A stretch of DNA of 59,799 bases from a virus (taxonomy: Duplodnaviria > Caudoviricetes), in the IMG/VR virus record IMGVR_UViG_3300021964_000069, positions 1 through 59,799 of that record; one strand, written 5' to 3'. Below, piece by piece: positions 1,612 through 59,799 of this stretch (position 1 is the first letter of the stretch; each line of letters begins with the position of its first letter). The notes beneath the pieces were generated by a model, which searched no databases, had not been told where the DNA came from, and was given only the letters and a program-made list of their open reading frames with translations. The position numbers and the translations under genes are program-made.

Positions 1612-3305
1612 GGCATTGCATCTATTGTTGTTTCCGCTAATGGCATATAGTCACCACTTGTATGATCCCATTTAAAATGTGCTTCCGCTTGATTTTCACC
1701 TAAATTTTGAAACTTAACTTTTAGCACTTTTACTTTAACAGTTTTTTGTTCGTAATTACGGTGTACCAATAATCCGTGATAAGACGCATCATACCACTCA
1801 CCTCCACCTTTGATGCTATACATAGTCGGTTCATCAATCGTACCGTCATCTTTCTTATACATTTTAGTTGGGTGTGCAACTATTATTACAAGCACATCAT
1901 ATTTTTTAGCAAAAGCTTCAACTCTTGTTAAGTATTCCATAGTTGCGTCGGGTATACTCATTGCACTTGAACCATTCATTTTAACTTTATTGTAAGGATC
2001 TATAACTAGACATTTAATACCTTTACGTTTTACAAGCTCAGCACCTTTAGCTAAAACAGCATCAAGATCATATCTTTCATTCTCAATAAAATAAAAATTA
2101 TCATTAACTTTTGATATAACATTATTCCATTTATCTGTTCCAATATCATCTTTATTTGGCATCCAACCACCAATCTTTCTAATCAATTTATGAGTATGTA
2201 AAAAAGTTGGTTTGTTTTCAGGCGAAGCAAATGCAGTTTTCCAACCGTATTTTAAGTAGTATCCCACCACCATTCTATCAACAAAATCAGACTTCCCACT
2301 GCTAGGAACCCCTGTAACGGTGATGAACTGGCCTGTGTATGTAGAGAATATGTTATCAAAGTTATCAAGGCCGATTTGATACCCAGGTTTAAAGCCTTCG
2401 TAAATAAATTCTTCAAGTTCTTCATTTATATCTTTTAAAGTTACTACATTTTCTATTGGAACAGGCTTAGCTTTATTAATAACAGCAGCAAGCATACTAC
2501 CCCCGTGTTTAATAATAAACTCGTTAGCATCTTTACATGTATTGAACTCAACCGTAAAGCATTTCTCTGCTCCAAGTCTTCGAATAAGCTCTTGCTTAAG
2601 TGCAGATCCCGCCTCATCTTCATCAACTGCGAGTATGATTTTTTCTTTTGATTCAAAATAATCAATGCAGGAATCCAAGTAGTCAAGGTTAGTATTATTA
2701 ATAGTAGCTCCGTTTGGTACTGATACAACAGAGTCAATACCAGCTTCAACAAAAGAAAGAGCATCAATTTCGCCTTCCACCACAACCATATAGTCATGCC
2801 CAATAGTCCGATCAATATTGTAAAATACCTTTTCGGCTCCTTTAACCAGTTTAAAATTTTTCCTACCATCTCTATACTTTATGTTAATTAATTCGTTATT
2901 TATAAAGTAATTGAATTGAATTGTATTTTCATTTTTACCGGTTTGTGGCATAAACTCAACGCCTTCAGTTACTTTCATTTTAACTAAAGTGTTTTGACTT
3001 ATACCGCGGCTCTCAAACCATTTAATTACTCGATCACTTAGCTGAGTATTATTTTTCCATTCTGGTTTGGTATATTCTTTCAATTTATCAGATTTTCTTT
3101 TAAAAGTATGTAATTGAAAAACTTCATTACAATTCATACAAGTACCGAGACCACGTTCCCAATCATACATAGCACATTTAGCTTTTTGATTTTTGGGCTG
3201 CCTGGTGTGCGAGCAAAGAGGGCATACACCCTCTCGCTTGCCAACCTGCAGATCATATTGATTGAAATTATCAATTTCAAAACCGTTAATCTCTGTAGTA
3301 TTCAT
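1596..3305 (-). CDS. Bifunctional DNA primase-helicase (T7 gp4/Twinkle-like)
   Basis: N-terminal Zn finger (CPLC...CMNC), TOPRIM (VVEGEIDALS, VSVPNGA, DEDEAG, KDANE), SF4 helicase Walker A GVPSSGKS, LVIDPYN, IVAHPTK. Confidence 0.95.
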   Translation of the reverse strand: MNTTEINGFEIDNFNQYDLQVGKREGVCPLCSHTRQPKNQKAKCAMYDWERGLGTCMNCNEVFQLHTFKRKSDKLKEYTKPEWKNNTQLSDRVIKWFESRGISQNTLVKMKVTEGVEFMPQTGKNENTIQFNYFINNELINIKYRDGRKNFKLVKGAEKVFYNIDRTIGHDYMVVVEGEIDALSFVEAGIDSVVSVPNGATINNTNLDYLDSCIDYFESKEKIILAVDEDEAGSALKQELIRRLGAEKCFTVEFNTCKDANEFIIKHGGSMLAAVINKAKPVPIENVVTLKDINEELEEFIYEGFKPGYQIGLDNFDNIFSTYTGQFITVTGVPSSGKSDFVDRMVVGYYLKYGWKTAFASPENKPTFLHTHKLIRKIGGWMPNKDDIGTDKWNNVISKVNDNFYFIENERYDLDAVLAKGAELVKRKGIKCLVIDPYNKVKMNGSSAMSIPDATMEYLTRVEAFAKKYDVLVIIVAHPTKMYKKDDGTIDEPTMYSIKGGGEWYDASYHGLLVHRNYEQKTVKVKVLKVKFQNLGENQAEAHFKWDHTSGDYMPLAETTIDAMPWEVG

Positions 3306-3306
3306 A

Positions 3307-3375
3307 TTAATCTTCGATTGTAATTAAATTACCGTCTTCGTCTTTGTGAATATAAATATAATCCTCGTCAATCAT
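3307..3375 (-). CDS. Putative acidic micropeptide (22 aa)
   Basis: MIDEDYIYIHKDEDGNLITIED; ATG overlaps the upstream stop (TAATG) and the ORF fills the gap before the primase. Confidence 0.45.
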   Translation of the reverse strand: MIDEDYIYIHKDEDGNLITIED

Positions 3376-3692
3376 TAGAATGGTAAATCTGGTTCAGATG
3401 ATATGCTTTGTAACATATCAACATTTGATTGTTGAGGTGCTTGCTTTTCTGCTGTATCAACATTCTGACCATTAGTCCATACAACCTTTACATTACCAAG
3501 ATATTGTTTTGCTGTTTTAGCATCACGTTCATCTTTAGTTTGCTCTGTCATAATATAACCCGAGTCACCATATTGACCGGGCTCATCATTTAACACAACA
3601 GTAACAGGATAATACTTACCCTTCTTACCTTCATAAATTTTGGCTTTATCAATTTTGGTTAAATCAATACTGCCTGAAATAATACTTGCCAT
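3375..3692 (-). CDS. Putative single-stranded DNA-binding protein
   Basis: Small beta-rich protein (IDLTKIDK...GKKGKYY...YLGNVKVVW) with the SSB-type C-terminal DLPF tail, lying between recombination genes and the primase. Confidence 0.7.
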   Translation of the reverse strand: MASIISGSIDLTKIDKAKIYEGKKGKYYPVTVVLNDEPGQYGDSGYIMTEQTKDERDAKTAKQYLGNVKVVWTNGQNVDTAEKQAPQQSNVDMLQSISSEPDLPF

Positions 3693-3883
3693 TAATAAGT
3701 AGATATTTGATTAAACATTCTTCTTAATTGTTCTTTGTTAGCACCTGTTAGTCTACGCATGTTATCAACTGCTTTAACATGAGACTGATTGTTGTAGAAA
3801 TTTCTTTCACTAGTTGTAACTCCAGTTACATCACAGGTTCTTTTACGTGTTCTTGGCATAATAATAAAAATTAAATTAAACAA
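3692..3883 (-). CDS. Hypothetical protein (likely start at MPRTRKR)
   Basis: Small basic ORF translationally coupled to the SSB gene. Confidence 0.65.
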   Translation of the reverse strand: MFNLIFIIMPRTRKRTCDVTGVTTSERNFYNNQSHVKAVDNMRRLTGANKEQLRRMFNQISTY

Positions 3884-3887
3884 TAAA

Positions 3888-4619
3888 TTAAAGTGTTTTT
3901 GATATATAATATTGGCTTATATCAGCGCCATCATTAACAAAAAATTCATTATATATTTGAACTGCTTTAGCAACTTTATTTGCTCCTGATTGTATAAATC
4001 TATCTGAACAATCAAACAATCCAAGTTGATGAGTGTTTTTGTCAATTACTAAAAATATTAATTCATAACCAAACATTTTAGAATAAATATAAGCTTGGCT
4101 GTCGTAATTAAATTTGTAAGCTGAACTAGAAAATGCATTTATATTTCCTGTTGTTTTCAAATCAATAACTAATTGTTCTGAATGATTTACAATATCAGCT
4201 TTACCTTTCCACATCATATTCTCAAGCTCAACTATTCCGGGCTTCTCGTATTCAACATCGCCATCTTGTATTAATTGTTTAAATAAATCATTATCTAAAA
4301 CAATTTCACGCATGAGTTGTATTTCGTCTGCTTCTTTTTCAAGTAAACAAATATCGCCATCTGATAGTTCTTTATATTCTTTTGTATTACGAGTCTTAGA
4401 TTTAGAAATCTTAAATTTATCCAGCTTATGTGGCTCGAGAATACAAGTGTGAAAGTAACCGCCAACGACTAAAGCGGTTGTTTTTGGTTTTTGCTTCTTA
4501 AAATCAAGAGGATTATTCAATAGTGCGTATATATCAGAATTACTTAAGTATGTCCGACCGAACTCACCGTAATAATTCTCATCATCACGCAATTTTTCTA
4601 TAATCTCTTTATTATCCAT
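3888..4619 (-). CDS. PD-(D/E)XK exonuclease (RecE/ExoVIII-like, DUF3799-like)
   Basis: YLSNSDI, G.YFHT.ILEP, KGKADIV, IDLKTT, YDSQAYIY motifs; adjacent to ERF. Confidence 0.88.
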   Translation of the reverse strand: MDNKEIIEKLRDDENYYGEFGRTYLSNSDIYALLNNPLDFKKQKPKTTALVVGGYFHTCILEPHKLDKFKISKSKTRNTKEYKELSDGDICLLEKEADEIQLMREIVLDNDLFKQLIQDGDVEYEKPGIVELENMMWKGKADIVNHSEQLVIDLKTTGNINAFSSSAYKFNYDSQAYIYSKMFGYELIFLVIDKNTHQLGLFDCSDRFIQSGANKVAKAVQIYNEFFVNDGADISQYYISKTL

Positions 4620-5178
4620 TCTTTAATTGTTCTAAAGCGTTAGCTTCAATGTTATATTTATCTTCTAGAGTTTTAAGCAAGCCTCCGTTTTTTAAAAACT
4701 TCTTAGCTTGATCAATATTTTTTGAATTAATTATAGGCTTTTTAGAAGCCATTATTTTATTTTCTAATGTATTTACCTTCTTAGCAAATCCGTGGTCATT
4801 AGTAGCATCTGAATCAGCTGTATCGTCAATCAATAATAAATTACCCAGCGCATATTTTTTACCATAAGAAGATGCTGAACCAAATTGCTGAGGTACTTGC
4901 ATACCCTTTTGATTTAAATCAACACCAACAATTGCAGTAGCGGTAATTTTTTGATCGCCATCGTGTATAGTAGCAACTGAATGTATAATTGGTAAGCCTG
5001 AAATCTCGCTTACTCTTTCTTCAATTGTAAAATACACTTTGTATTTTTCATTAATAGGTTTCAATGCTTCCAGTATGTCCTCAGCAGATCTGAAATTGTA
5101 TTTACCAAAAGAATTGTAACGGGACTTTTTAGCTTTAAATTCCTGTTGAATTAGACTTAATTTTTCTTGAATTGTCAT
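4612..5178 (-). CDS. ERF-family ssDNA annealing protein
   Basis: YNSFGKYNFRSAEDILEALKP, QQFGSASSYGKKYALGNLLLIDDTADSD, which is the ERF signature. Confidence 0.92.
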   Translation of the reverse strand: MTIQEKLSLIQQEFKAKKSRYNSFGKYNFRSAEDILEALKPINEKYKVYFTIEERVSEISGLPIIHSVATIHDGDQKITATAIVGVDLNQKGMQVPQQFGSASSYGKKYALGNLLLIDDTADSDATNDHGFAKKVNTLENKIMASKKPIINSKNIDQAKKFLKNGGLLKTLEDKYNIEANALEQLKNG

Positions 5179-7186: not shown

Positions 7187-7521
7187 TTTAATAAACTTAT
7201 TTTTATATTATCCCATTTACAGCATTTACGATTTTTATTAACTAAAAGATCAATGCGCTTTTCCCACCTTTTATTCATACGGTCTTGTATTTCCCATTCA
7301 CCATCAAGCTCATCATTAATACCTTCAATTAATATTTTTTTACCAAATGTAAAACCATATTTTTCAAGATCACGTGACACAGCTACCCAGCGATGCTTTG
7401 CTGGATTTAGGCTATCAATAACAGAATTAGATGCTGTTATAAATGGAGTATCGTCGGTTTGCTTTGGGTCAGCATGGTATATTGTAACCGTTACCAATAA
7501 ACTTAATATTATTTCATTCAT
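7183..7521 (-). CDS. 3D-domain (MltA-like lytic transglycosylase) protein
   Basis: VTVTIY...QTDDTPFITAS, WVAVSRDL, FGKKILIEG, IQDRMNKRW..RIDLLV; start probably MNEIILSLL. Confidence 0.8.
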   Translation of the reverse strand: MNEIILSLLVTVTIYHADPKQTDDTPFITASNSVIDSLNPAKHRWVAVSRDLEKYGFTFGKKILIEGINDELDGEWEIQDRMNKRWEKRIDLLVNKNRKCCKWDNIKISLLK

Positions 7522-8359
7522 AATTACGAAATGCTTTTGCTCGAGGAAAACGATATGCACCACCGGGTGTACGTTCGAAATACTCGAACGTTAATTGCTT
7601 GCCAATCAAGCTTTTACGGATAGACCAGATACGTTTGCGTTCTGGAATTGTAAGTGAGGGCCAAGGTACTTCTACAGCGAGTCCATTATTATCGGTGCCG
7701 AGAAATTTACCGAGCCCGTTTTTAAATTTGCCTTGACCTTCAATATAGCCAGTGACCGTGATCTCGGTATCTGACCAGTCTTTAACTTTTTGTAGTGTGT
7801 AACTGCGTTTTTGTTCATAAGGTTTGTTTTGTCTAAGTATAGAGCCTTCATAGCCGTTTGCTTTGTTTTGTTTATGGAATTTATTTAAGTCAGCTTGTGA
7901 CCAGATAACTTTGGTTTCAACTTCGTGTAAAAATTTTAGTTTGTACTTGCTTTTAAGATTTGTAATTGCAAGAGTACGATCTATAAAATCAACATTAGAA
8001 AAGCCTGTTGCTTCAAATAAATCGTAGCAATGAAATTGTGAATAGCTAGCGGCTTCAAATTTGTCTTGCTGCGTAGGTTTTTGCTTACGAACAAGTGAAA
8101 TTATTTTGTTGAAATTATTTTTAAACTTATGGTTATAAAGCTCACCATCAAGAATGAGATAAGGATTATCAGCAAAAAGTGGTTTAAGCTCAGTGAGTAT
8201 ATGCTTACAATTGTGGAACCGTTTATTGTTTCGGCTAAATGCACCATCTTTTGTAATGTAGCAACGGACTCCGTCAAGCTTTGGTTGAACAAAGTGTGTT
8301 TCATTAAAGTCAATTGTTTTGGATACTGGGTGAGCCAGCATGGGTTTAAAGGTTGTCAT
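7514..8359 (-). CDS. ATP-dependent DNA ligase
   Basis: KPMLA, QPKLDGVRC (KxDG), LDGELY, YDLF, GYEGSILR, KRS..LQKVK, RFP motifs; start probably MTTFKPMLA. Confidence 0.95.
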   Translation of the reverse strand: MTTFKPMLAHPVSKTIDFNETHFVQPKLDGVRCYITKDGAFSRNNKRFHNCKHILTELKPLFADNPYLILDGELYNHKFKNNFNKIISLVRKQKPTQQDKFEAASYSQFHCYDLFEATGFSNVDFIDRTLAITNLKSKYKLKFLHEVETKVIWSQADLNKFHKQNKANGYEGSILRQNKPYEQKRSYTLQKVKDWSDTEITVTGYIEGQGKFKNGLGKFLGTDNNGLAVEVPWPSLTIPERKRIWSIRKSLIGKQLTFEYFERTPGGAYRFPRAKAFRNYE

Positions 8360-8648
8360 ATTCTTGTTTGATTTTGTCATATATTTCTTGTAATTCAATT
8401 AATAATTCGTATTTTTCTTCGTTAATAAGCTTTTGTCTTTGAGAATCAAGCTGCTGCAATTGTAATAATAATATATCTTTTTGAGAAGTATTTTTAATAT
8501 TACCAAAACCATCAACGTTTTGATGGAAAAATTGTTCAGGGGGCATAGGATCCCACACTTTAATTGTTTTATCAAAGTATTGAATTATATGCTCTAATAT
8601 AATTCTAGCCATTTTTTTGGCTATTTCGTCTATTTCTTCAGGCGTCAT
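8346..8648 (-). CDS. Hypothetical protein with C-terminal UVR-like coiled coil
   Basis: C-terminal QKLINEEKYELLIELQEIYDKIK resembles the UvrB/C motif (E.YE.A..L). Confidence 0.6.
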   Translation of the reverse strand: MTPEEIDEIAKKMARIILEHIIQYFDKTIKVWDPMPPEQFFHQNVDGFGNIKNTSQKDILLLQLQQLDSQRQKLINEEKYELLIELQEIYDKIKQEYDNL

Positions 8649-8937
8649 TTGTTAATTGTTTAGCTATATAAACTGAATAAGGTTCAATAGGTGTTTTGTA
8701 TTTAAGTTTATCAAAATGATGGTTATCAATAATTGAAGCTAAATATTGCCACATACGCAAATTACGTATATTGCCAGCAATTTCAGTGTATAGCAATTCG
8801 GGCCATTGCTCGTGGTGCCGTGCTCTAAACTTGTCGCGAATATCTAAACGCAGTGTAGCAACTTTAGATATAATCATTGCTTCAATGCGATCGTCATAAT
8901 ATTGTTTATTCATTTTCATATCGTTCAATATAATCAT
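8638..8937 (-). CDS. Hypothetical protein
   Basis: Coupled ORF in the early arm. Confidence 0.7.
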   Translation of the reverse strand: MIILNDMKMNKQYYDDRIEAMIISKVATLRLDIRDKFRARHHEQWPELLYTEIAGNIRNLRMWQYLASIIDNHHFDKLKYKTPIEPYSVYIAKQLTNDA

Positions 8938-9223
8938 TTACTTCATATTCCGGCAAACGACTTTCAATATCATCAACATATATTATAGCTTCACCACCAC
9001 CAATTGCGTCAGCAGTTTCTTTAATACGATCAATAATAGTATCAAAGTCTGGTTCATAATAATACGTGTCATATTCCCAATCAATATTTTTATGATCATT
9101 TGTCATAACGGTTAGCTCATAGCCATCAGCTGTATTCCAAGTGCTAATCTCAAGATCGGGATAGCCTCGATAGTCGTCAGTAATTTGTGCTACATTTAGT
9201 AGCTCAGCTAGTTTTTCAATCAT
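8906..9223 (-). CDS. Highly acidic hypothetical protein
   Basis: 105 aa, D/E- and Y-rich; first ORF downstream of the tRNA. Confidence 0.75.
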   Translation of the reverse strand: MIEKLAELLNVAQITDDYRGYPDLEISTWNTADGYELTVMTNDHKNIDWEYDTYYYEPDFDTIIDRIKETADAIGGGEAIIYVDDIESRLPEYEVNDYIERYENE

Positions 9224-9245
9224 TATATTTAATTTAAAAAGTTAG

Positions 9246-9318
9246 TTGCGTGGGCAGGATTCGAACCTGCGACCTCAGGGTTATGAGCCCTGCGAGCTGG
9301 CCACTGCTCTACCACGCT
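9246..9318 (-). tRNA. tRNA-Met(CAT), initiator type
   Basis: Minus strand AGCGTGG TAGAGCAGTGGCCAGCTC G CAGGG CTCATAA CCCTG AGGTC GCAGG TTCGAAT CCTGC CCACGCA A. Unpaired 1:72 position and three consecutive G-C pairs in the anticodon stem are fMet hallmarks; CCA is not encoded. Confidence 0.93.
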
Positions 9319-9325
9319 AAAAAAT

Positions 9326-9568
9326 GCAAGTGCACAGACTGGTGGATTTTTATCTGTACTTTAGTCCAGTAATACTTGCTGAGTCTCACCATTGCTTTTC
9401 GTTCACCCTTGCAAGAGGTACGTCGGTTTTTTGACTCTATATAAGATACCGAGGGCGCAGCACATTACCTGTCTTTTTAACTAGTATTATTGCTCGTCAG
9501 CATTCCCTCGGTGTAATATTAATGCTTCTCTGAGTAATGCCTTACTACGCGGTTTTCACTAATATTAC
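9326..9568 (-). ncRNA. Putative structured ncRNA(s): four closely packed stem-closed modules
   Basis: No ORF in the track here and GC-richer than its flanks. Closing stems at 9513-9524/9557-9568, 9448-9455/9505-9512, 9381-9385/9433-9437 and 9326-9331/9374-9379; lies between two tRNA-like genes. Confidence 0.6.
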
Positions 9569-9573
9569 TTTTG

Positions 9574-9649
9574 TGGACGTGGGAGGAGTCGAACCTCCGT
9601 TTGCTGATAGTGTACTTTCGAACTTTGTCAGCACTTACCCGGCACGCCC
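9574..9649 (-). ncRNA. tRNA-like RNA resembling the tmRNA tRNA-like domain (Ala identity)
   Basis: GGGCGTG/CACGTCC acceptor stem with G3.U70 and discriminator A; T-arm GGAGG TTCGACT CCTCC; stemless D-loop CCGGGTAAG; long irregular hairpin TGCTGA...TCAGCA instead of an anticodon arm; 3-nt AAC connector. Confidence 0.75.
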
Positions 9650-9650
9650 A

Positions 9651-9851
9651 TTATTTGCGTCGCCAAGATCGGTGCACTGCTGCACTTGTTGCTTGGTCAA
9701 CGACTTGTATTTCTAACACTTGTTTGCTACCGATTATAGGAACATAGCTATATAATTGTGTATCAGAACATTGCACACATTTATTATAACCTAAATCTAA
9801 TCTTGCTTGTGGCATTGTGTTGCCGCATCTACAGTATTTCATATTGAGCAT
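9651..9851 (-). CDS. DksA/TraR-like C4 zinc-finger protein
   Basis: CRCGNTMPQARLDLGYNKCVQCS matches the C..CG..IP.ARL......C..C pattern. Confidence 0.6.
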   Translation of the reverse strand: MLNMKYCRCGNTMPQARLDLGYNKCVQCSDTQLYSYVPIIGSKQVLEIQVVDQATSAAVHRSWRRK

Positions 9852-10044
9852 TTATTTTTATATATTGATTATTTTCATTCCAAGCGTCTGCTGACATATA
9901 ACCTACGCGTTGATAAACATAATTATCAAGGTGTTGCATCATTTGTTTACGCTCACTTGTTAATTCAGGCTTTTTGCATTTTTTAATAAAGTGAATAACT
10001 CTTGCGCCGTTATCATTTTCGCCATAAAATACCCAGTTTTTCAT
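9829..10044 (-). CDS. Small early hypothetical protein
   Basis: Overlap-coupled ORF. Confidence 0.7.
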   Translation of the reverse strand: MKNWVFYGENDNGARVIHFIKKCKKPELTSERKQMMQHLDNYVYQRVGYMSADAWNENNQYIKINAQYEIL

Positions 10045-10232
10045 AATTGTTGGTTTAATATATAATTTATTACTTGCGATGGTGTACCAATTAATGTACG
10101 CTCTTCGTCATATAAATCTTGATAAACTAATTTATAGAACTTTGGCTTATGTATAGCAAATTGTGTATCAAACTTATTCCCGGCCATCTTACTCGTATTC
10201 AAATTCAATATAGTTACTAAGCTTTGCAGCAA
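10041..10232 (-). CDS. Small early hypothetical protein (likely start MAGNKF)
   Basis: ATGA overlap with the downstream ORF. Confidence 0.6.
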   Translation of the reverse strand: MLQSLVTILNLNTSKMAGNKFDTQFAIHKPKFYKLVYQDLYDEERTLIGTPSQVINYILNQQL

Positions 10233-10428
10233 AATATTCTACGATTTCGTCGTATTCAAAACCTTCTTCTAATAAAGGTATAAGCTTTTCAATTTGGTAA
10301 CGCACTGCGAATTCGTCAATACTTTCATCCATTTTTTTAAACTTTGCTTGATAGTTTAAATAGTTATTTAAATTACTGTTCATAATCGTTAATTTGTAAT
10401 TGGTTAAACATTTCTTTAATTTCTTCAC
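10189..10428 (-). CDS. Small acidic early protein (likely start MNSNLN)
   Basis: First ORF downstream of promoter motif copy 2. Confidence 0.65.
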   Translation of the reverse strand: MKKLKKCLTNYKLTIMNSNLNNYLNYQAKFKKMDESIDEFAVRYQIEKLIPLLEEGFEYDEIVEYFAAKLSNYIEFEYE

Positions 10429-16063: not shown

Positions 16064-17644
16064 ATGGCACAATTTGGTGGGCCTAAACTTGTCAAAAAAA
16101 TGTATTTTGATGGTGAGGCTAAGGAGAAACTAATTAATGGAATAAATAAAATAGCTAATGCCGTAGGCTCCACATTAGGAGCTAGCGGTAAAACTGTTAT
16201 TATAGAAGACGACTTCGGTGGTCCTCAAGTTACTAAAGATGGTGTAACCGTCGCTAACAGTATTTTATTACAGAGTCCGGTAGAAAACCTAGCGGTATCT
16301 ATGATGAAACAAGCTGCCCAAAAAACAGCTACTGTGGCCGGAGATGGTACAACAACATCTATAGTTTTAACAAAAGCTATTATTGAAAACTATTATTTTA
16401 AAAAGGGCGAAAAGCATTCTTTTAGGGATATTAAAGCCGGTATGGAAGCTTATAAAGACCATATCATTAATATACTTAATAAGAAAGCAATTCCTGTTAA
16501 AAATAAGCAATTAACTCAAGTTGCAACTATTTCTGCTAATAATGATGTAGAGCTAGGGGAAACCATAGCTAAAGCATTTACTGAAGCCGGTAATAATGGC
16601 GTGGTGGCAATGGAAACATCGCCAAGCAATGAAACTTATGTTACCTCTGTACAAGGAACTAAAATAGGTAGTACGGCTAAAAGTCCGCATTTTTATACTA
16701 ATGCCGAAAAAGAAATAACTGAACTTGAGAATCCTCTTGTATTTATTAGCGCATCGGATATACCAAATATGCGTAAAATCCAAGATATTCTGGAGTATGC
16801 GATAAAGTCCAATCGCTCTATACTCCTAGTTGCCCCATTAGAATCGCAGCCGCTAGCTGCACTGTCTATGAATAAAGTAAAGGGCAACATTAAAGTCAAC
16901 GTTGTAGATCCACCTAGTTTTGGACTTAAGAGAAAAGATATACTAGATGATCTTGCGTTGCTTGTCGGGGCTAAAGTTTTTGACGAAAGCCTGGGTGATT
17001 CAATTGATGCAATCACCCCTGACATGCTAGGAACAGCCGATAAGGCTATCTCAGATAAAGATGGTACTGTACTTATTGTTGAAAACAAGCCTGAAGAAGT
17101 GCAGGAAAGAATTAAGTATTTAAAATCTGTTCTTGAAAAAGAAGACCATCACGTTATGACTCGGCATTTAAATGACAGACTTGCATTATTATCAGGAGGT
17201 GTTTCTGTAATATATGTTGGTGCTGACACTGAAGTTGAGTTAAAAGAAAAACAAGACAGAGTAGATGATGCTATACACGCTGTACGTGCGGCTAAGAAAG
17301 AAGGCATTCTTCCTGGCGGCGGCAGTGCTTTAGCTTATGCTGCAGCAGCGGATTGGGAATTTAAAGGTACCGCCGGTTTTTTAACTGGCGTAGAAATACT
17401 CAGTAGAGCACTTGCAGCACCATTTACCAAAATACTTACAAATGCAGGCTTAGATCCTTCTGCTTATACACTAAACAAGTGGGGAGAAGGTATTGATGTT
17501 ACTTGCGGACAGAAAGAAGATATGATTAAAAAAGGTATTGTTGATCCATTAATGGTCACAAAAACCGCTTTAAATAATTCTGTATCTGTTGCTTCTACTA
17601 TATTATCGACCGATTGTGTAATCAGTAATATACGTGAAGAATGA
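16064..17644 (+). CDS. groEL: Chaperonin GroEL (phage-encoded)
   Basis: VTKDGVTVA, AGDGTTT, VATISANND, LSGGV.VI.VGA.TEVELKEK.DRVDDA.HA.RAA..EGI.PGGG, GIVDP; no GGM tail. Confidence 0.97.
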   Translation: MAQFGGPKLVKKMYFDGEAKEKLINGINKIANAVGSTLGASGKTVIIEDDFGGPQVTKDGVTVANSILLQSPVENLAVSMMKQAAQKTATVAGDGTTTSIVLTKAIIENYYFKKGEKHSFRDIKAGMEAYKDHIINILNKKAIPVKNKQLTQVATISANNDVELGETIAKAFTEAGNNGVVAMETSPSNETYVTSVQGTKIGSTAKSPHFYTNAEKEITELENPLVFISASDIPNMRKIQDILEYAIKSNRSILLVAPLESQPLAALSMNKVKGNIKVNVVDPPSFGLKRKDILDDLALLVGAKVFDESLGDSIDAITPDMLGTADKAISDKDGTVLIVENKPEEVQERIKYLKSVLEKEDHHVMTRHLNDRLALLSGGVSVIYVGADTEVELKEKQDRVDDAIHAVRAAKKEGILPGGGSALAYAAAADWEFKGTAGFLTGVEILSRALAAPFTKILTNAGLDPSAYTLNKWGEGIDVTCGQKEDMIKKGIVDPLMVTKTALNNSVSVASTILSTDCVISNIREE

Positions 17645-53640: not shown

Positions 53641-56600
53641 ATGGATAACAATTATAATCCTTTTGGTACAGAATACAATCCTTTTGATCCTGAGCAGGAA
53701 CAACAAGAGCCTGAGCAAGGTTTTTTCGAAGGATTGATGTCTTCTATAGACCAATATTATACTTTGGGTAGATCAAGTGAAGAAATACTTGATTTGTTAG
53801 ATGGTGAAATTGATGATACCAATCTTGAAAAAGCAATTGAAAGATTAAATAAAATCAATGAGACCGGCCAACCCACTCAATCTATGCTGGATTACCAGAA
53901 AGCTGTGGAAGAAAACGGCGGAGGTTTTTTGGGAAATTTAAAAGCTATAATATCAAACCCTTTAGATTTTGGAGGAGCTGCAGCACAGCAAATTTTTGGA
54001 AGTTTAGCAGGCGTAGCTGGAGTTGGGCAGGAAGCTTTGCTTTCTGGAGTTCTTGATGACCAAAGACGCGGGGATACAACAGCAAACCTCTTAACAGCAG
54101 GTACTGCTGTTGGCGCTGGTATTGGAGCTGGTGCCACAGCTGCGGCAGGAACTATAGCTGGCCCTGCGGGAACTTTTATAGGCGGTTTTGCAGGTGGTAT
54201 TGCGGGAGGCGCTAAAGGAGCTTTTTCTACAGCATCTGGAATTATGGAAAGCGTAGGTAAAGTTGCTGAGCTCTTAAATGAATATACGGAAGGTGATCTT
54301 ACTAAAGAAAAAATTAGAGCTGTACTAAATGATCCGGAAAAACTTAATGACATAAGATCAAAGGCTATTGGTAGAGGTGTTGCTATTGGAGCAACAGACT
54401 TTGTTTTAATGGGCGTTGGCAAAGGTATTGGCACTACTTATAAAGCACCTAGACTTGGAGAAGCAATAGGGGAGGTTGCAGGAGGAGCTGGTGGTGAAGC
54501 TATTGCTCAACAAGTGGCTGACGAAGAATTTGATCCAACATCAATAGTAATGGAAGCTGCAGGGGTTACTCAATCTTTACCTGGCGCAATTAAAAGAGGC
54601 GCTGAAAAAGCTATAAATTCATATAACTTAAACAAGCAAAATTTAGCTAAGCAAGATTTTTTAGAGGTAATAAAAAATGCTAATGACGAAGATGTTGCAG
54701 CCGCGGAAATATTTGTAGAAGGGGATGACAAAGAGATAGCTAATATTGTAAATGAAAAAAGAAAAAAAGCTATTGAAGAAAAAAAGGTTGATTTATTTAA
54801 ACAACTTATTCCTAGTTATATTGAACAAAAAAGAAATAGCAAATTAAAAGAAATAATTGAGTTAACTAATACAAAAAAAGAATTAGAAACTCAAAAAGCA
54901 AGTCCAGCTGAAATAAACGCAGTAACAGAAGAAATAAATGATATAAATAGTTCTCTTGCTGAAAATGAAAATGTACTTAGAAGCAATATAAATAATTTAT
55001 CAACTGAAGATAAAATAAATATATTAAATGAAAAGGCTAAGTATAATTTTTATGATAAAAAAAGTAAAAGCTATAAGTCTACTGAAAAGCAAAAAGAAAT
55101 TGCTGAAAAACAAAAAAATAAGGCAGAAGCTATTATATTAACTTTATTTACAAATCCTATTCAACAAGAAGTACAGCAAAGCTCTATTGAAAGATCTGAA
55201 AAAACGCAAGATATTTTTGAAAAAGCTTTAGCTAATGAAAAAATAAAAAGAGTTGTTGACGAAGGTAATGGCAAAACGTATAATCAAATAGATGGTAATA
55301 CGTTTAATGAAATATTAGAACAACAAGCACCTCTGATAAATAAAGTTGCAAAAGATAATTACTCTAAAATACCAGCAGATTTACGAATTGGTAGTTTTGA
55401 AGATTACAAAATGAATTTGCAAGCTGAGATGTTTAAGTTATTAAGAACTTATAATCCTGAAACAGGAGTACCTTTAGCGGCATATTTAAATAATCCTAGA
55501 ACAGGTTTACCGGTAAGAGCAATGAGTAAAGATGCTTTTGAAAATATTGCAGCTCAAGAATACACTAGAGACGTAGAAGATTTGCAAGTAGCTGAATCTG
55601 AACCGGCACAACAATCTATTGAAGAACAAATAGATATAGAATCTTTTGACAAAGAAATTAATGCTACCAGCATTGCTGATCAATTAAACTTAGATGACTC
55701 TGTTAAAAATGAAATAACAAGAGCAAGTAAGTTAGCATTAGCAACAACAAAACAAAAGGTTGATTCATTAAAATTTACAACCGATATTGCTAATAGTTTA
55801 AAAAATGAATTGTATCCCATATTAAAAGAAACATTGGGAAAAAATACAAAAAATAATAGACAATTTAGCAATTTAATAAATAACAATCCAAAATTGTTAT
55901 ATGATTCTCTACGCCCTGAATCTATGGTAAAAGCTAGAGATGCTAAATTAAATCCTTTTGAAGAGGCTGGAATGCTTAAGGATAATAAAAAAGTTGCTTT
56001 TGAACAAGTGGGGTTAGAAAAATTTAAAAATTATTTTGACAATCCTGAATTAGCTAAAAACAATAAAACAAAAGCTAATAATCGTAGAATGGCTATTCTA
56101 AATTCATTAGCAGAATCATTAGGAGCAACGGAAGCTGAAAATTTGTTAGCCAATAATGTTGATGGGATTAAAGATATATTTATTGAAAAGCAGAAAGCAT
56201 TAAATGTTATAAATGAAAAATTTAATGTTTTTCAACAAACTTTTGAAAAATCTAAAAATGAATTTGCGGATTACGATAGACCATGGAAAGATATTGCTAC
56301 AGAATATGGATTTGAAGATTATAATTTAGATGATCCAGCTCAAAGAGAAACTTGGTTAAATCAAATTAAAACTTCGGGTTTAATTAATAAATTACCAAAA
56401 AGTTTTTTTAGAAATTTTAATGGTGTAAGTGATCGTGCAATTTTTAATGGTGAATATGTAAAAACTTTAGATGGTAAATTAATTTTAGAAAAAGACTATA
56501 AAAAGCTATCTAAAGAAAAAAGACCTAAAATAGAACGAGTTCGTTCTAGAGGTGTATTTTTTATTAATATTAAAGAAGCAGATGCTTGGATCAATCAAGC

Positions 56601-59600
56601 TGAAAAAGAAGGGTACACTTTTGCGGAAGAAAAGGATACTTATTCATGGATTAGTAAGCAAAAAACACCTTATACAAAAATAGTAAATGGTAAACAACAA
56701 ATAAGATTACAAGAGGATTTTAAAAACAAAGAATGGATTAAAAATGAAAACAATAAATTAGTTGGATTAGAAGAAATATTTACCATTTTTGAAAATTTTA
56801 TGTTTCAAAACGGTGAATTAAATTTGGCTAATGCAGCTATTGTTGCTCCATTATTAAAATCTACTTCCTCTTGGCAGGGACATTTTATTAGAAAAGCTTC
56901 TCCCGTAGGATTTGCATCAATTGGTCAAATGTTTGATAAAAATGGCAAAAGACTTTTTGATGAAGAGCATACATTGCCTGCTTCGGCTGTAGCAAAGTAT
57001 CTATTTGAAGCAGCAGCTAATGGAGCTATAAAAAGTAATTTTAAATATGTAAAGAAAAATTATTTTCAAGGGCCATTATTAAAAGCTGATGATAATAAAT
57101 TATCTGGAATAACAATAAACGGAACAAGATTTAGTTATAAATCAAAAACTCCCGAAGGCTTTAGAATTAATAAAGACAATATATGGTCTAGATATTTTAA
57201 TCCAAATGTTAATAATACTAATGGAGGAATTGATCCTAGCTTTATATTGTTAAGGAATGGCAAAACAGTTGCTGAACAATTTAATGTCACATCGGCTGGT
57301 AAAACTGCTGATATTAAAAACGCTCAACAAGATGCAATAAATGAAGAATCTATTGATAATTTTGAGCTATTAATAGAAAGAGCAATACAAGCTATTAGAA
57401 CGCTACAAGGCGATCCAGGTTCTTTACAAACTAATATTGCGGCTATACCGTCGTTTTTATTAATAAACTCATTAAGAACTGTTAAATTAGCCTATAGAGG
57501 AGGTAAAACATTAGCTAAAGCTATTGAAGCTGGATACAATGTTGTTAAAGATTACTTGACTAAGCAAGAATACCAAGATTTTGTACAACAATCTGTATAC
57601 GCTTCAGATGCTAAAACAGGATCTGCAAGAAAACAATTGGCTATACTAAATGAAAAAGGTGTAGCTGAAGTACAAGAACAAGCAAGACAAAAGAATAAAC
57701 AAGACCTTGAAAGTTTCGGTGTTGAAGCCCAAGATTTGTCAACTAATGAAATAATTGATAAATTAAATGTTTTAAAACAAGCAAAAATTGCTGCTTTAAA
57801 TAAAAAAGCTCCTGTTAAAAAAGCAAGAGTATTTGACTTTGATGATACGCTTGCGCAGAGCAAATCTAATGTACTTTATACGCTTCCGGACGGAACCAGC
57901 GGTAAATTAAGTGCTACTGAATTTGCAACGCGTTCTGGGGAACTTACAGAGGCTGGGGCTGAATTTGATTTTTCTGAATTTTCTAAAGTTATAGACGGTC
58001 AGAAAGGCCCATTAGCTTTGTTAGCGAAAAAATTAGTTGAGGCAAAAGGTGATCGTGATGTTTTTGTATTAACAGCAAGACCCGCAGAAGCTGCTCAAGC
58101 TATAAAAGAGTTTTTAAGAGCTGGTTTGGGAATAAGTATACCTATTGAAAACATAACAGGTTTAGCTGATGGTAAACCAGGAGCTAAAGCTTTTTGGATG
58201 GCCAACAAGGTTGCTGAAGGATATAATGATATTTTCTTTGCAGATGATGCGCCTCAAAATGTTGCGGCTGTGAATAAAATGTTAAATAATCTTGGTGTTA
58301 AAAATAAAACACAAATAGCAAAAGAACCTGTTAAAGCTTCTTTAGAAGATGAAATGGACAACATTTTGCGAAGTAAGGCTCCAACAAAGGGGTCTTTATT
58401 AAGAAAATTTAATGTTTATGTACCGCCAGGAGCGGATGATTTTGTAGGATTGCTATACACTTTCCTAGGCAAAGGTAATATTGGTGAAGCTCAAATGAAG
58501 TTTTTCCAAGATAATATTATGACACCTTTTGCTAAAGGCATATCAGCTTATGAATCCGCTAAAGTTTCATTAGCTAAAGATTATAAAGAGCTTTCAAAAA
58601 GATACAAAAATAAAGGTCTTTTAAAAGAAACTATTTTAGATGGTTTATATACGAAAGAGCAAGCTATTAGAGCTTACAATTATGATAAAGCTGGCCAAGA
58701 TTTAGGCATTAATGAAACTGACAAAAACGAGCTACTATTAGCTGTAATGGAAGATGAAAATCTTTTAGCTTTTGCTAATGAGCTTTCTAAAATAACAAAA
58801 ATAAAAGAGGGCTATCCGCAAATAACAGAAGACTGGTTAGGTGGTAATATTCAAACTGATTTAGCTAATGTTTCCAATAAAGCTCAAAGAGCAGAATTTT
58901 TACAAGAATTTTTAAATAATAAAGACCAAGTTTTTTCATCACAAAACATGAAGCTTATAAAGCAACTGCATGGCAACGATTTTACTGATGCTTTGCAAAA
59001 TGTTTTGGAAAGAATGTCAACAGGTATAAACCGCAAAAAAGGTAAAGACAAAGAATTTAATGCCGCAATGAATTGGCTTAATCAATCTGTTGCAAACGTT
59101 ATGGCTGTTAATATAAGATCCGCAGTATTACAGCAGTTATCAATAGTTAACTTCATGAATTGGGACTTTAATAACCCCTTTATGTTTGCTAAAGCTATTG
59201 GTAATACCTCACAGTTTAGTGCTGACTTTATAGAATTAATAAATTCAGACTTTTTAACAGATAGACGTGGTGGGCAAAAAATAGAAATTAATACAGCTGA
59301 TTTAGCAAATTCCGAACCTGGTAATTATTTTTTAAGAATGAATAAAAAGTTACTAGAGTATGGATTTAAGCCAACACAATGGGGCGATAGCTTTGCAATT
59401 GCTTTTGGAGGAGCTACTTGGTATCGTAATAAAATAAACCAGCTTATTGATGGGGGTATGAATGAAGCTGACGCTAAGTCTCAGGCTATGCTAGAGTTAC
59501 AAGAAATTGCCGAAGAAACGCAACAGTCTTCAAGACCAGATAGAATATCAAGACAGCAAGCTTCGGATATTGGAAGATTAATTTTAGCTTTTGCTAATAC

Positions 59601-59799
59601 ACCTTTACAATACGCCCGATTAACAAAAAAAGCTACACTTGATTTAATTAATAGAAGAGGAGACTGGCGAGCGAACGCATCAAAAATAGTTTACTATGGT
59701 GTTGCTCAAAATTTATTTTTCTCAGCAATGCAAAGCGCTTTATTTAGTATGCTATTTGATGAGACATCAGATGAAGAAGATGAAAAAAAATTAAGCTAC
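53641..59799 (+). CDS. Giant internal virion/ejection protein (>2050 aa, 3' truncated, absent from ORF track) with Gly-zipper, sigma-region-2-like and HAD phosphatase domains
   Basis: Frame from ATG 53641 (MDNNYNPFG...) is open in every segment I translated and at the window end. Gly/Ala membrane-insertion segment at about 54090-54240; YNPETGVPLAAYLN at about 55450; FDFDDT at 57832. Confidence 0.9.
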   Translation, partial: MDNNYNPFGTEYNPFDPEQEQQEPEQGFFEGLMSSIDQYYTLGRSSEEILDLLDGEIDDTNLEKAIERLNKINETGQPTQSMLDYQKAVEENGGGFLGNLKAIISNPLDFGGAAAQQIFGSLAGVAGVGQEALLSGVLDDQRRGDTTANLLTAGTAVGAGIGAGATAAAGTIAGPAGTFIGGFAGGIAGGAKGAFSTASGIMESVGKVAELLNEYTEGDLTKEKIRAVLNDPEKLNDIRSKAIGRGVAIGATDFVLMGVGKGIGTTYKAPRLGEAIGEVAGGAGGEAIAQQVADEEFDPTSIVMEAAGVTQSLPGAIKRGAEKAINSYNLNKQNLAKQDFLEVIKNANDEDVAAAEIFVEGDDKEIANIVNEKRKKAIEEKKVDLFKQLIPSYIEQKRNSKLKEIIELTNTKKELETQKASPAEINAVTEEINDINSSLAENENVLRSNINNLSTEDKINILNEKAKYNFYDKKSKSYKSTEKQKEIAEKQKNKAEAIILTLFTNPIQQEVQQSSIERSEKTQDIFEKALANEKIKRVVDEGNGKTYNQIDGNTFNEILEQQAPLINKVAKDNYSKIPADLRIGSFEDYKMNLQAEMFKLLRTYNPETGVPLAAYLNNPRTGLPVRAMSKDAFENIAAQEYTRDVEDLQVAESEPAQQSIEEQIDIESFDKEINATSIADQLNLDDSVKNEITRASKLALATTKQKVDSLKFTTDIANSLKNELYPILKETLGKNTKNNRQFSNLINNNPKLLYDSLRPESMVKARDAKLNPFEEAGMLKDNKKVAFEQVGLEKFKNYFDNPELAKNNKTKANNRRMAILNSLAESLGATEAENLLANNVDGIKDIFIEKQKALNVINEKFNVFQQTFEKSKNEFADYDRPWKDIATEYGFEDYNLDDPAQRETWLNQIKTSGLINKLPKSFFRNFNGVSDRAIFNGEYVKTLDGKLILEKDYKKLSKEKRPKIERVRSRGVFFINIKEADAWINQAEKEGYTFAEEKDTYSWISKQKTPYTKIVNGKQQIRLQEDFKNKEWIKNENNKLVGLEEIFTIFENFMFQNGELNLANAAIVAPLLKSTSSWQGHFIRKASPVGFASIGQMFDKNGKRLFDEEHTLPASAVAKYLFEAAANGAIKSNFKYVKKNYFQGPLLKADDNKLSGITINGTRFSYKSKTPEGFRINKDNIWSRYFNPNVNNTNGGIDPSFILLRNGKTVAEQFNVTSAGKTADIKNAQQDAINEESIDNFELLIERAIQAIRTLQGDPGSLQTNIAAIPSFLLINSLRTVKLAYRGGKTLAKAIEAGYNVVKDYLTKQEYQDFVQQSVYASDAKTGSARKQLAILNEKGVAEVQEQARQKNKQDLESFGVEAQDLSTNEIIDKLNVLKQAKIAALNKKAPVKKARVFDFDDTLAQSKSNVLYTLPDGTSGKLSATEFATRSGELTEAGAEFDFSEFSKVIDGQKGPLALLAKKLVEAKGDRDVFVLTARPAEAAQAIKEFLRAGLGISIPIENITGLADGKPGAKAFWMANKVAEGYNDIFFADDAPQNVAAVNKMLNNLGVKNKTQIAKEPVKASLEDEMDNILRSKAPTKGSLLRKFNVYVPPGADDFVGLLYTFLGKGNIGEAQMKFFQDNIMTPFAKGISAYESAKVSLAKDYKELSKRYKNKGLLKETILDGLYTKEQAIRAYNYDKAGQDLGINETDKNELLLAVMEDENLLAFANELSKITKIKEGYPQITEDWLGGNIQTDLANVSNKAQRAEFLQEFLNNKDQVFSSQNMKLIKQLHGNDFTDALQNVLERMSTGINRKKGKDKEFNAAMNWLNQSVANVMAVNIRSAVLQQLSIVNFMNWDFNNPFMFAKAIGNTSQFSADFIELINSDFLTDRRGGQKIEINTADLANSEPGNYFLRMNKKLLEYGFKPTQWGDSFAIAFGGATWYRNKINQLIDGGMNEADAKSQAMLELQEIAEETQQSSRPDRISRQQASDIGRLILAFANTPLQYARLTKKATLDLINRRGDWRANASKIVYYGVAQNLFFSAMQSALFSMLFDETSDEEDEKKLSY

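Follow-up and report, generated by a model that had tools for sequence, protein, structure and literature searches.

What is encoded by the DNA that separates a tRNA-like domain (TLD) from a tRNA-Met gene in an uncultured marine phage of the class Caudoviricetes? This question is raised by positions 9326 to 9568 of IMG/VR virus record IMGVR_UViG_3300021964_000069, a 59.8-kilobase (kb) record of 91% estimated completeness whose 59,799 nucleotides are referred to here as the window. A preliminary description, made from the letters of the sequence, had read this block as an array of unknown non-coding RNAs built from four stem-closed modules, designated A, B, C, and D. Comparison with related loci upholds that reading: the modules are real, uncatalogued structured RNA units that lie on the minus strand between a TLD of the transfer-messenger RNA (tmRNA) type and a tRNA-Met of the initiator type. 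The explanation toward which the evidence leans, with slightly better than even confidence, is that the block comprises four separate, horizontally exchanged small structured RNA genes that stand in an array and would be excised from an early transcript. The elements of the block are as follows.

Positions 9513 to 9568, minus strand: module A, with a closing stem of 12 pairs and, inside it, a conserved internal loop and a hairpin of 5 pairs.
Positions 9448 to 9512, minus strand: module B, with an 8-pair closing stem abutting A, a small 5' hairpin, and a long invariant stretch.
Positions 9438 to 9447, minus strand: an A+U-rich spacer of 10 bases between B and C, read from the sequence.
Positions 9381 to 9437, minus strand: module C, with the closing helix GAGUC/GACUC, a second helix, a hairpin, and invariant A-rich linkers.
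Positions 9326 to 9379, minus strand: module D, with the closing helix GCAAGU/ACUUGC around two crossing helices in a pseudoknot-like arrangement.

Every helix named for modules A to D in the preliminary description is found in the minus-strand sequence at these positions. The closing stem of A, composed of 11 Watson-Crick pairs and one G.U pair, was recovered by a repeat finder as inverted repeat I3 (92% complementary as DNA), and that of B as inverted repeat I1. The claim that G.U wobbles mostly favor the minus strand fits as well, in that the G.U pairs of A, C, and D in the pair tables would become A.C mismatches on the plus strand. When the whole block is folded to minimum energy, each of the four modules closes by itself, and 2 of 200 shuffles are as stable (z -2.37). 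Folded singly, the modules yield z values of -3.29 (A), -3.82 (B), -0.20 (C), and -1.71 (D) on the minus strand and of -2.27, -2.94, -1.10, and -0.79, respectively, on the plus strand, the plus-strand folds being weaker for A, B, and D, though not for C. A and B are clearly more stable than shuffles, while C and D are not. Folding energy alone is insufficient for a finding, and comparison with relatives constitutes the stronger evidence. Within B, the sequence apart from the closing stem and the small hairpin is explained by no fold; it includes an invariant and apparently unpaired stretch of 12 bases with the palindrome ACTAGT. Two further structural candidates were set aside: a hammerhead ribozyme in B, which contains a CUGACGAG stretch, since no Rfam ribozyme family is matched and the stretch folds into a short hairpin in which one pair is compensated; and an alternative pairing UGGA/UCCA in D, which is not kept in L138 and L142 (L numbers denote related loci throughout).

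Homologous intergenic regions of related phages, the comparison through which the preliminary description had proposed that its claim be checked, were collected by three routes: an exact 25-base pattern from the TLD (5 loci), the protein encoded by the upstream zinc-finger gene (29 loci), and degenerate patterns for each module, run on viral contigs and, for module A, also on metagenome contigs. Chance pattern matches were dropped on inspection, leaving as true 11 of 101 for C and 13 of 79 for A (judged by a closing-stem test) and, among the matches listed, 8 of the 28 D matches and all 7 of the B matches. The resulting sets show covariation in A, C, and D and, more weakly, in B. Specifically, four distinct sequences of A (window, L198, L135, and L071; the degenerate A modules of L086 and L137 were left out) retain pairing in all 60 of 60 cells across 15 pairs, as compared to 83.1% in shuffles, and six pairs are changed on both sides, four of 10 in the closing stem and two of five in the inner hairpin. 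The A hairpin (positions 9533 to 9546) also varies in environmental contigs, by two changes that are compensatory and a third that produces a wobble pair. For C, eight distinct sequences, a count that leaves out an L137 variant with an enlarged hairpin, are paired in 93.0% of cells across 16 pairs (85.2% in shuffles), with seven pairs double-changed. For D, the corresponding figures are five distinct sequences, 16 pairs, 93.8% of cells paired (85.1% in shuffles), and five double-changed pairs; the closing helix exists in three versions among the homologs, and one crossing helix contains a compensatory pair. For each of A, C, and D the observed covariation score is attained by none of 500 shuffles, and shifting the pairing partners by one to three columns leaves pairing in just 21-47% of cells.

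Support for B is weaker. Its homologs, eight distinct sequences in nine loci, are approximately 90% identical and differ by one- and two-base insertions or deletions, and two of 14 predicted pairs are double-changed, one in the closing stem and one in the four-pair hairpin. Counts of paired cells are conservative, as MAFFT misplaced one-base length differences (L010 for C; L137 and L198 for B) such that some true pairs were scored as broken. The preliminary description had staked its claim on covariation or conservation in relatives, and the helices are indeed kept by compensatory changes. To judge from these changes and from the strand-specific G.U pairs, selection on the modules acts at the level of RNA rather than DNA.

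Motif maps of the related loci, given below as module orders, reveal how the modules are arranged outside the window.

Window: TLD-A-B-C-D-tRNA.
L198, L218: TLD-A-B-C-tRNA.
L137: TLD-A (altered)-B-C (expanded)-tRNA.
L002: B-D-TLD, then another unit.
L005: B-TLD.
L003/L007: TLD without any module.
L004/L008: TLD-tRNA.
L006, L009: TLD-C, another unit, tRNA.
L010: TLD, another unit, C, tRNA.
L039, L080, L089: C-B-TLD, in an array behind a different open reading frame (ORF).
L138, L140: D-TLD-tRNA.
L071: A-F-C-G.
L086, a close relative of L071: F-G-C.
L167, L172, L217: A-F-G.
L142, L144, L145: D alone between two ORFs.

Because in these related, uncultured phages of Flavobacteriia a module may stand by itself, in a changed order, before or after the TLD, or be missing altogether, the modules are best regarded as independent cassettes. 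On the evidence of these maps the block is not one RNA; its modules are gained, lost, and reordered as units between related phages. Two arrangements deserve description in their own right. Between L071 and L086 modules are in swapped order (F-C-G versus F-G-C), and C there lies inside an extended, GT/CA-rich outer helix. In L142, L144, and L145, D starts 5 bases past a stop codon and approximately 20 bases ahead of the next start, and neither TLD nor tRNA is present in the stretch read.

Environmental contigs give a similar picture. Module sequences occur in RNA-library contigs from three studies. One such contig reads TLD-A-B-C-tRNA, positions 9323-9384 being replaced by 8 bases; in a second, which has TLD and tRNA, 9323-9568 gives way to 60 other bases; in a third, the TLD directly adjoins B (9449-9510); and a fourth contains exactly D (9326-9379) within unrelated flanks. 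In an environmental DNA contig D stands directly ahead of the TLD. The breakpoints of these DNA and RNA-library contigs coincide with module borders. When the window is aligned with L002, DNA identity is 154/195 and 180/235 in the flanking genes, and 76/77 in the TLD, 62/64 in B, and 54/54 in D; by this measure the modules are conserved more strongly than the neighboring protein genes.

Units of this kind are also nested. Motifs H, J, and K are found both free and within the TLD loop, motif M both free and within a larger RNA, and the loop motif of the window's own TLD recurs as a free hairpin in L018, L019, L034, and L035. An RNA of 107-173 bases lies just upstream of the TLD in L012, L014, L016, L027, L028, and L029 and displays the crossing-helix order and junction motif of D, together with a variable hairpin in one loop. 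It has in common with module B the 12-base motif AATACTAGTTAA, which contains a 6-base palindrome. The helix ACUGG/CCAGU of D, invariant in the collected set because the search pattern required it, has a counterpart that varies to ACAGG/CCUGU in four of six members of this longer RNA. The common topology and short motifs suggest that D is probably a minimal form of this RNA. As for the TLD, its inner stem-loop is a variable slot (window, L012-L035, L080), such that TLD length ranges from 68 to 124 bases; most versions contain one conserved 20-base loop motif, and others contain different structured inserts, which are also seen free or inside other RNAs.

None of the modules corresponds to a cataloged RNA family. 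Scanned with Rfam 15 at the gathering score, the window and 30 related loci yield tRNA only, and relaxed searches, with E up to 10 for the region and E up to 0.5 for 10 loci, gave no match to A-D on the RNA strand, an outcome that fits the label of unknown non-coding RNA given by the preliminary description. A weak plus-strand match to Glutamine-II (12.1 bits, E 2.5) was taken as noise, and an apparent likeness of one motif in relatives to signal recognition particle (SRP) RNA was discarded, no Rfam SRP match being found at E up to 0.5. In searches of GenBank phages, the block alone gave one chance match at E = 10, a 431-base region was matched only via tRNA-Met, the TLD alone gave only generic T-arm matches, and megablast of 10 kb gave nothing. 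The module C pattern, run on 185,579 reference prokaryote genomes, gave one match, which lies in a protein-coding region of a gammaproteobacterial metagenome-assembled genome and was judged to be chance. Similarly, no description of these RNAs was found in the literature on phage tmRNAs, on structured or tRNA-like phage RNAs, on intergenic RNAs made early by Cellulophaga and crAss-like phages, and on T4 stable RNAs, supplementary files excepted. The tRNA and tmRNA fragments bound by AcrIIIA1 are, in the part of that account available (PMC11662646), host RNA fragments, and are unrelated to the locus.

How might such units be produced? The minus-strand order is zinc-finger ORF, TLD, A, B, spacer, C, D, 7 bases, tRNA-Met, and next ORF, and the elements that border the block are the following.

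Positions 9651 to 9851, minus strand: zinc-finger ORF P0001, 66 residues, its stop codon one base ahead of the TLD.
Positions 9571 to 9649, minus strand: TLD of the tmRNA type, coding-less, 79 bases, matched by the Rfam tmRNA model.
Positions 9245 to 9318, minus strand: tRNA-Met (CAT) with initiator-type features, called by ARAGORN and scoring 65.2 bits against the Rfam tRNA model.
Positions 8906 to 9223, minus strand: the open reading frame beyond tRNA-Met.

Flanking genes, TLD, tRNA, and modules are all on the minus strand, the modules being thus sense-strand relative to the gene cluster, which is of an early type and consists of small ORFs and DNA-metabolism genes. P0001 has a distant homolog in Flavobacterium phages, annotated as 'DnaK suppressor protein', and a G3:U70 TLD is found downstream of the zinc-finger gene in 24 of the 29 loci collected via its protein. 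Against the Rfam tmRNA model the TLD of the window scores 28.4 bits (gathering score 47), both model ends being matched and 39 bases replacing 326 model positions; the TLDs of six relatives score 29.7-36.6 bits. Among 47 family loci there are 30 distinct versions of the TLD with an acceptor-stem G3:U70 pair, for which these versions were selected; the pair next to it switches from C-G to A-U in four of the 30, and the T stem covaries. Eight further acceptor-plus-T-arm elements in the same 47 loci are without G3:U70, and include a second class of TLD, which also has a variable interior, and acceptor-stem/T-arm mini-helices of approximately 40 bases (L024, L030, L031, L033; L011; L016). The tRNA-Met has a 1:72 mismatch in the Rfam alignment and three G-C pairs adjoining the anticodon loop, features that we take to mark it as an initiator tRNA.

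Because the modules lie between the TLD and tRNA-Met on the same strand, their release by tRNA-processing enzymes is plausible. According to the proposed scheme, the array would be co-transcribed with the small genes upstream, and ribonuclease (RNase) P and RNase Z would cut at the TLD and tRNA-Met, freeing the block. Further cuts would fall in A+U-rich spacers, and trimming by exonuclease back to the closing helices would leave stable RNAs of approximately 55-65 bases. Spacers resembling 9438-9447 also part modules in relatives; a role for them as nuclease entry sites may be inferred and nothing firmer. In two studies, RNA-library contigs stop at 9649/9650, the 5' end of the TLD, where a DNA contig runs through; such ends are what RNase P cleavage would give, and are a weak hint. 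No intrinsic terminator was found on the RNA strand in a scan of 8800-10400, which gave a single terminator-like site, outside the block (plus strand, 9671-9686), as against 0.9 expected by chance; a run of U follows D in the window and not in L002. Promoter-like sites are not enriched (9 versus 6.9 +/- 2.7 in shuffles).

Once released, the module RNAs would act in trans, their invariant unpaired bases making contact with a protein, of host or phage, or with a small ligand, and would serve as accessory, host-directed functions that vary by phage, much as the coding-less TLD next to them may be able to titrate SmpB, the partner of tmRNA. The basis for this analogy is mycobacteriophage DS6A, which, in the portion of the report available, produces a TLD-only RNA, a type of molecule that strongly inhibits tmRNA, perhaps by titrating SmpB (PMC4131195). 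By analogy with such a decoy, and given the hypervariable, accessory gene-like distribution of the modules, variable host-directed binding RNAs are the tentatively favored interpretation. A bolder version, possible but on balance unlikely, is that RNA cassettes, aptamer-like and closed by stems, form a combinatorial library in these phages and act as decoys or sponges for host RNA-binding, translation-control, or defense factors or for their signaling molecules; the cassettes, of which 16 recurrent non-TLD motif definitions have been recognized so far, would be exchanged like accessory genes and grafted into the loop of the alanine-type TLD, as a natural counterpart of the laboratory 'tRNA scaffold'.

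Several observations weigh against the interpretation of the block as an array of excised RNA genes. Firstly, module C is without a thermodynamic signal on its own (z -0.20), the interior fold of B is not settled by comparison, and the alignments are small (4-8 distinct, related sequences) and were collected with patterns that fix some columns. Secondly, the RNA evidence consists of assembled contigs, which carry no information on ends, strand, or abundance, may include DNA carry-over, and come in one of three libraries from oligo-dT selection. Thirdly, the genes nearby serve DNA metabolism, not RNA, and no partner protein or ligand is known. In addition, the arrays of L071, L086, and L142 are without TLD motif or tRNA call in the stretch examined, and processing by RNase P and RNase Z is therefore not the sole route. 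Finally, the solitary D between two ORFs also fits a cis-acting role.

This last point leads to the possibility that the modules are cis-acting punctuation of a polycistronic early transcript, serving as processing sites for a host RNase specific for double strands or for A/U, or as 3' stability hairpins that shield the message upstream, and having no function in trans, a proposal that is to be taken seriously though it seems improbable overall. The modules are always intergenic, sense-strand, and stem-closed, with A+U-rich spacers, D can stand alone between a stop and the next start at the distances given above, and A resembles an interrupted hairpin of approximately 17 pairs; hairpins of this type are cleavage sites in the early transcripts of phage T7. 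Four different consecutive units, however, exceed what punctuation would need, long unpaired stretches are invariant, and the folds of C and D are multi-helix or crossing. Moreover, the same motifs are grafted into the TLD loop, and the units keep their sequence as their neighbors change, being conserved above the genes that they would serve.

More doubtful is the suggestion that the modules are selfish mini-elements, spread by recombination without benefit to the phage, whose structure would serve only their own maintenance or transfer. Their patchy presence, their reordering in close relatives (L071 versus L086), and their nesting in other units would be expected of such elements, D is identical between phages whose flanking genes are approximately 79% alike, and genes for an annealing protein of the ERF type and for a PDDEXK nuclease lie 4-5 kb away. 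Yet neither terminal direct repeats nor duplicated targets were found, we know of no mobility mechanism for units of approximately 55 bases, and compensatory changes and strand-specific G.U pairs point to selection on RNA, not DNA. The nuclease is PDDEXK-like (DUF3799) and adjoins the ERF-family protein at window positions 3888-5178 on the minus strand, and an ATP-dependent DNA ligase is encoded at 7514-8398; exchange at short homologies could be promoted by recombination genes of this kind.

Very improbable is a further alternative, raised as conceivable by the preliminary description, in which the block would supply the missing mRNA-like and pseudoknot parts of a fragmented, rearranged two-piece tmRNA working with the TLD. 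Its attraction is that G3:U70 is the identity mark for alanine, that a TLD bearing it resembles the ends of tmRNA, that TLD and block together are approximately tmRNA-sized, and that pseudoknots are typical of tmRNA; two-piece tmRNAs are, moreover, common in marine phages according to the part of the literature seen (PMC9004378). Nonetheless, neither the window nor any of 12 related loci yields a tmRNA call from ARAGORN, while the same program calls the tmRNA of Cellulophaga phage phi14:2 at once. The Rfam tmRNA_permuted model scores 13.9 bits (gathering score 47) over model positions 36-93 only, and the TLD is not permuted, as both acceptor strands flank one T arm in normal order. The interior of the TLD is only 39 bases and the modules lie outside it, unlike the layout of a one-piece tmRNA, whose hallmark of a G3:U70 acceptor stem plus T arm is found in the element at 9571-9649 and not in the block. 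TLDs are present without modules in L003/L007, and modules change order and side. The tag-like frame SENRVVRHYSEKH* noted earlier at module A can be read in the sequence; it is not conserved, as in L135/L071 compensatory hairpin changes alter the amino acids and the stop is lost. Across the modules no conserved reading frame was seen, the compensatory changes in A being non-synonymous and B being subject to insertions and deletions.

A candidate of another kind, a ToxI-like type III antitoxin array, was rejected. ToxI-like arrays consist of tandem direct repeats of a short unit beside a toxin gene, and here no tandem repeats were found in 9200-9700 at a minimum score of 30, no sequence relation links the four units, the ORF on either side is without a PHROG match, and no toxin-like protein was seen among the 17 window ORFs scanned. 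That the hairpins are functionless chance products of an A+T-rich spacer, as the failure of C and D alone to exceed shuffles significantly in stability might suggest, is a possibility close to nil that comparative sequence data already contradict, given compensatorily changed homologs in many contigs from independent samples and conservation above that of the flanking genes.

The wider genome offers some context for the locus. PHROG matches in the window include terminase, portal, primase-helicase, and a GroEL-like chaperonin. The best named match is at 44% terminase identity, and because the closest phages in culture have Flavobacterium, Cellulophaga, Tenacibaculum, and Maribacter as hosts, the host of the window phage is probably a member of the Flavobacteriia. 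The chaperonin gene (526 residues; 16064-17644, plus strand; PHROG 5725, E 2.5e-127) resides in a genome of approximately 60 kb, and an open frame of more than 2053 residues (53641-59799, plus strand) runs off the end of the window.

If the block is, as preferred here, an array of exchanged RNA genes, its significance lies in where phage novelty is sought. Accessory and anti-host functions of phages have almost always been sought among proteins; here the locus is, across a family of Flavobacteriia-infecting marine phages, a hypervariable island of RNA genes, with four uncatalogued structured RNA families in this one window and over a dozen recurring motifs in relatives. Exchange as cassettes, nesting, and the swappable insert of the TLD loop are unusual for natural RNAs. 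Should the modules bind host factors, they would provide new RNA-protein or RNA-ligand pairs and a natural precedent for scaffolded RNA display, and, should the decoy-library version prove true, they would represent a phage-host arms race fought with RNA modules rather than proteins. Even as mere processing or stability elements, they would be new conserved RNA motifs useful for the annotation of marine viromes. The phenomenon may be general.

Comparison with known systems reveals partial likenesses. GOLLD and ROOL are ornate RNAs that are said to be often phage-borne and to lie near tRNA genes; they are single large conserved RNAs, whereas A-D are small and independent, with no Rfam match to either. 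RNAC and RNAD of phage T4 reportedly lie beside the T4 tRNA genes and are matured together with them. They are described, in the part of the review available, as phage small RNAs 'of yet unknown functions' (PMC9697503). The modules resemble them in being on the same strand as, and beside, a tRNA gene, mature species being a feature not visible from contigs; by description, in so far as that source gives one, T4 has two fixed genes, while here there are many shuffled and nested families.

Cellulophaga phage phi14:2 shares with the window phage the host class Flavobacteriia and, in the sections of its transcriptome report at hand, has two long early intergenic regions that are stable and transcribed above most genes (10.1101/2020.03.07.982082), so that abundant, stable, early non-coding RNA is a further likeness. 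It is nevertheless an unrelated crAss-like phage, one of whose non-coding stretches holds a full tmRNA with a tag frame, and comparison of its non-coding stretches with the arrays by BLAST gave one 13-base chance match (E 0.046). In the phi14:2 genome (L237, NC_021806), positions 2905-4601 form 1.7 kb without a listed gene, occupied only by removed ORF calls, and the ARAGORN tmRNA lies at 4031-4500 with the tag GSSVQKLAMVA*; some of the stable and abundant RNA reported from the intergenic regions of that phage may be this tmRNA. The pseudoknots of marine-phage tmRNAs and two-piece tmRNAs are likewise compact pseudoknotted units associated with a TLD, as far as the available text goes (PMC9004378). 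As characterized there, they are placed between the TLD halves, in fixed order and around a tag frame, in contrast to modules that lie outside an intact TLD, in any order and frameless.

The closest parallels concern the TLD itself. The TLD-only tmRNA of DS6A, from the portion of its description available (PMC4131195), is a phage-encoded RNA that consists of little beyond the tRNA-like domain of tmRNA, and the TLD of the window, with its G3:U70 pair, its T arm, and its want of a frame, is of that type, as modules A-D are not; set against that description, the TLD loop of the window family accepts exchangeable inserts, and the TLD itself is part of an array that varies. In the engineered tRNA scaffold (Ponchon and Dardel, as cited in the part of PMC3401473 seen), a structured RNA replaces the anticodon arm of a tRNA, and the cell processes the frame and protects it. 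The scaffold is, on that account, a laboratory design, whereas the TLD of this phage family naturally carries different structured inserts at that position, and by analogy the natural inserts may use the TLD as a protective or delivery frame.

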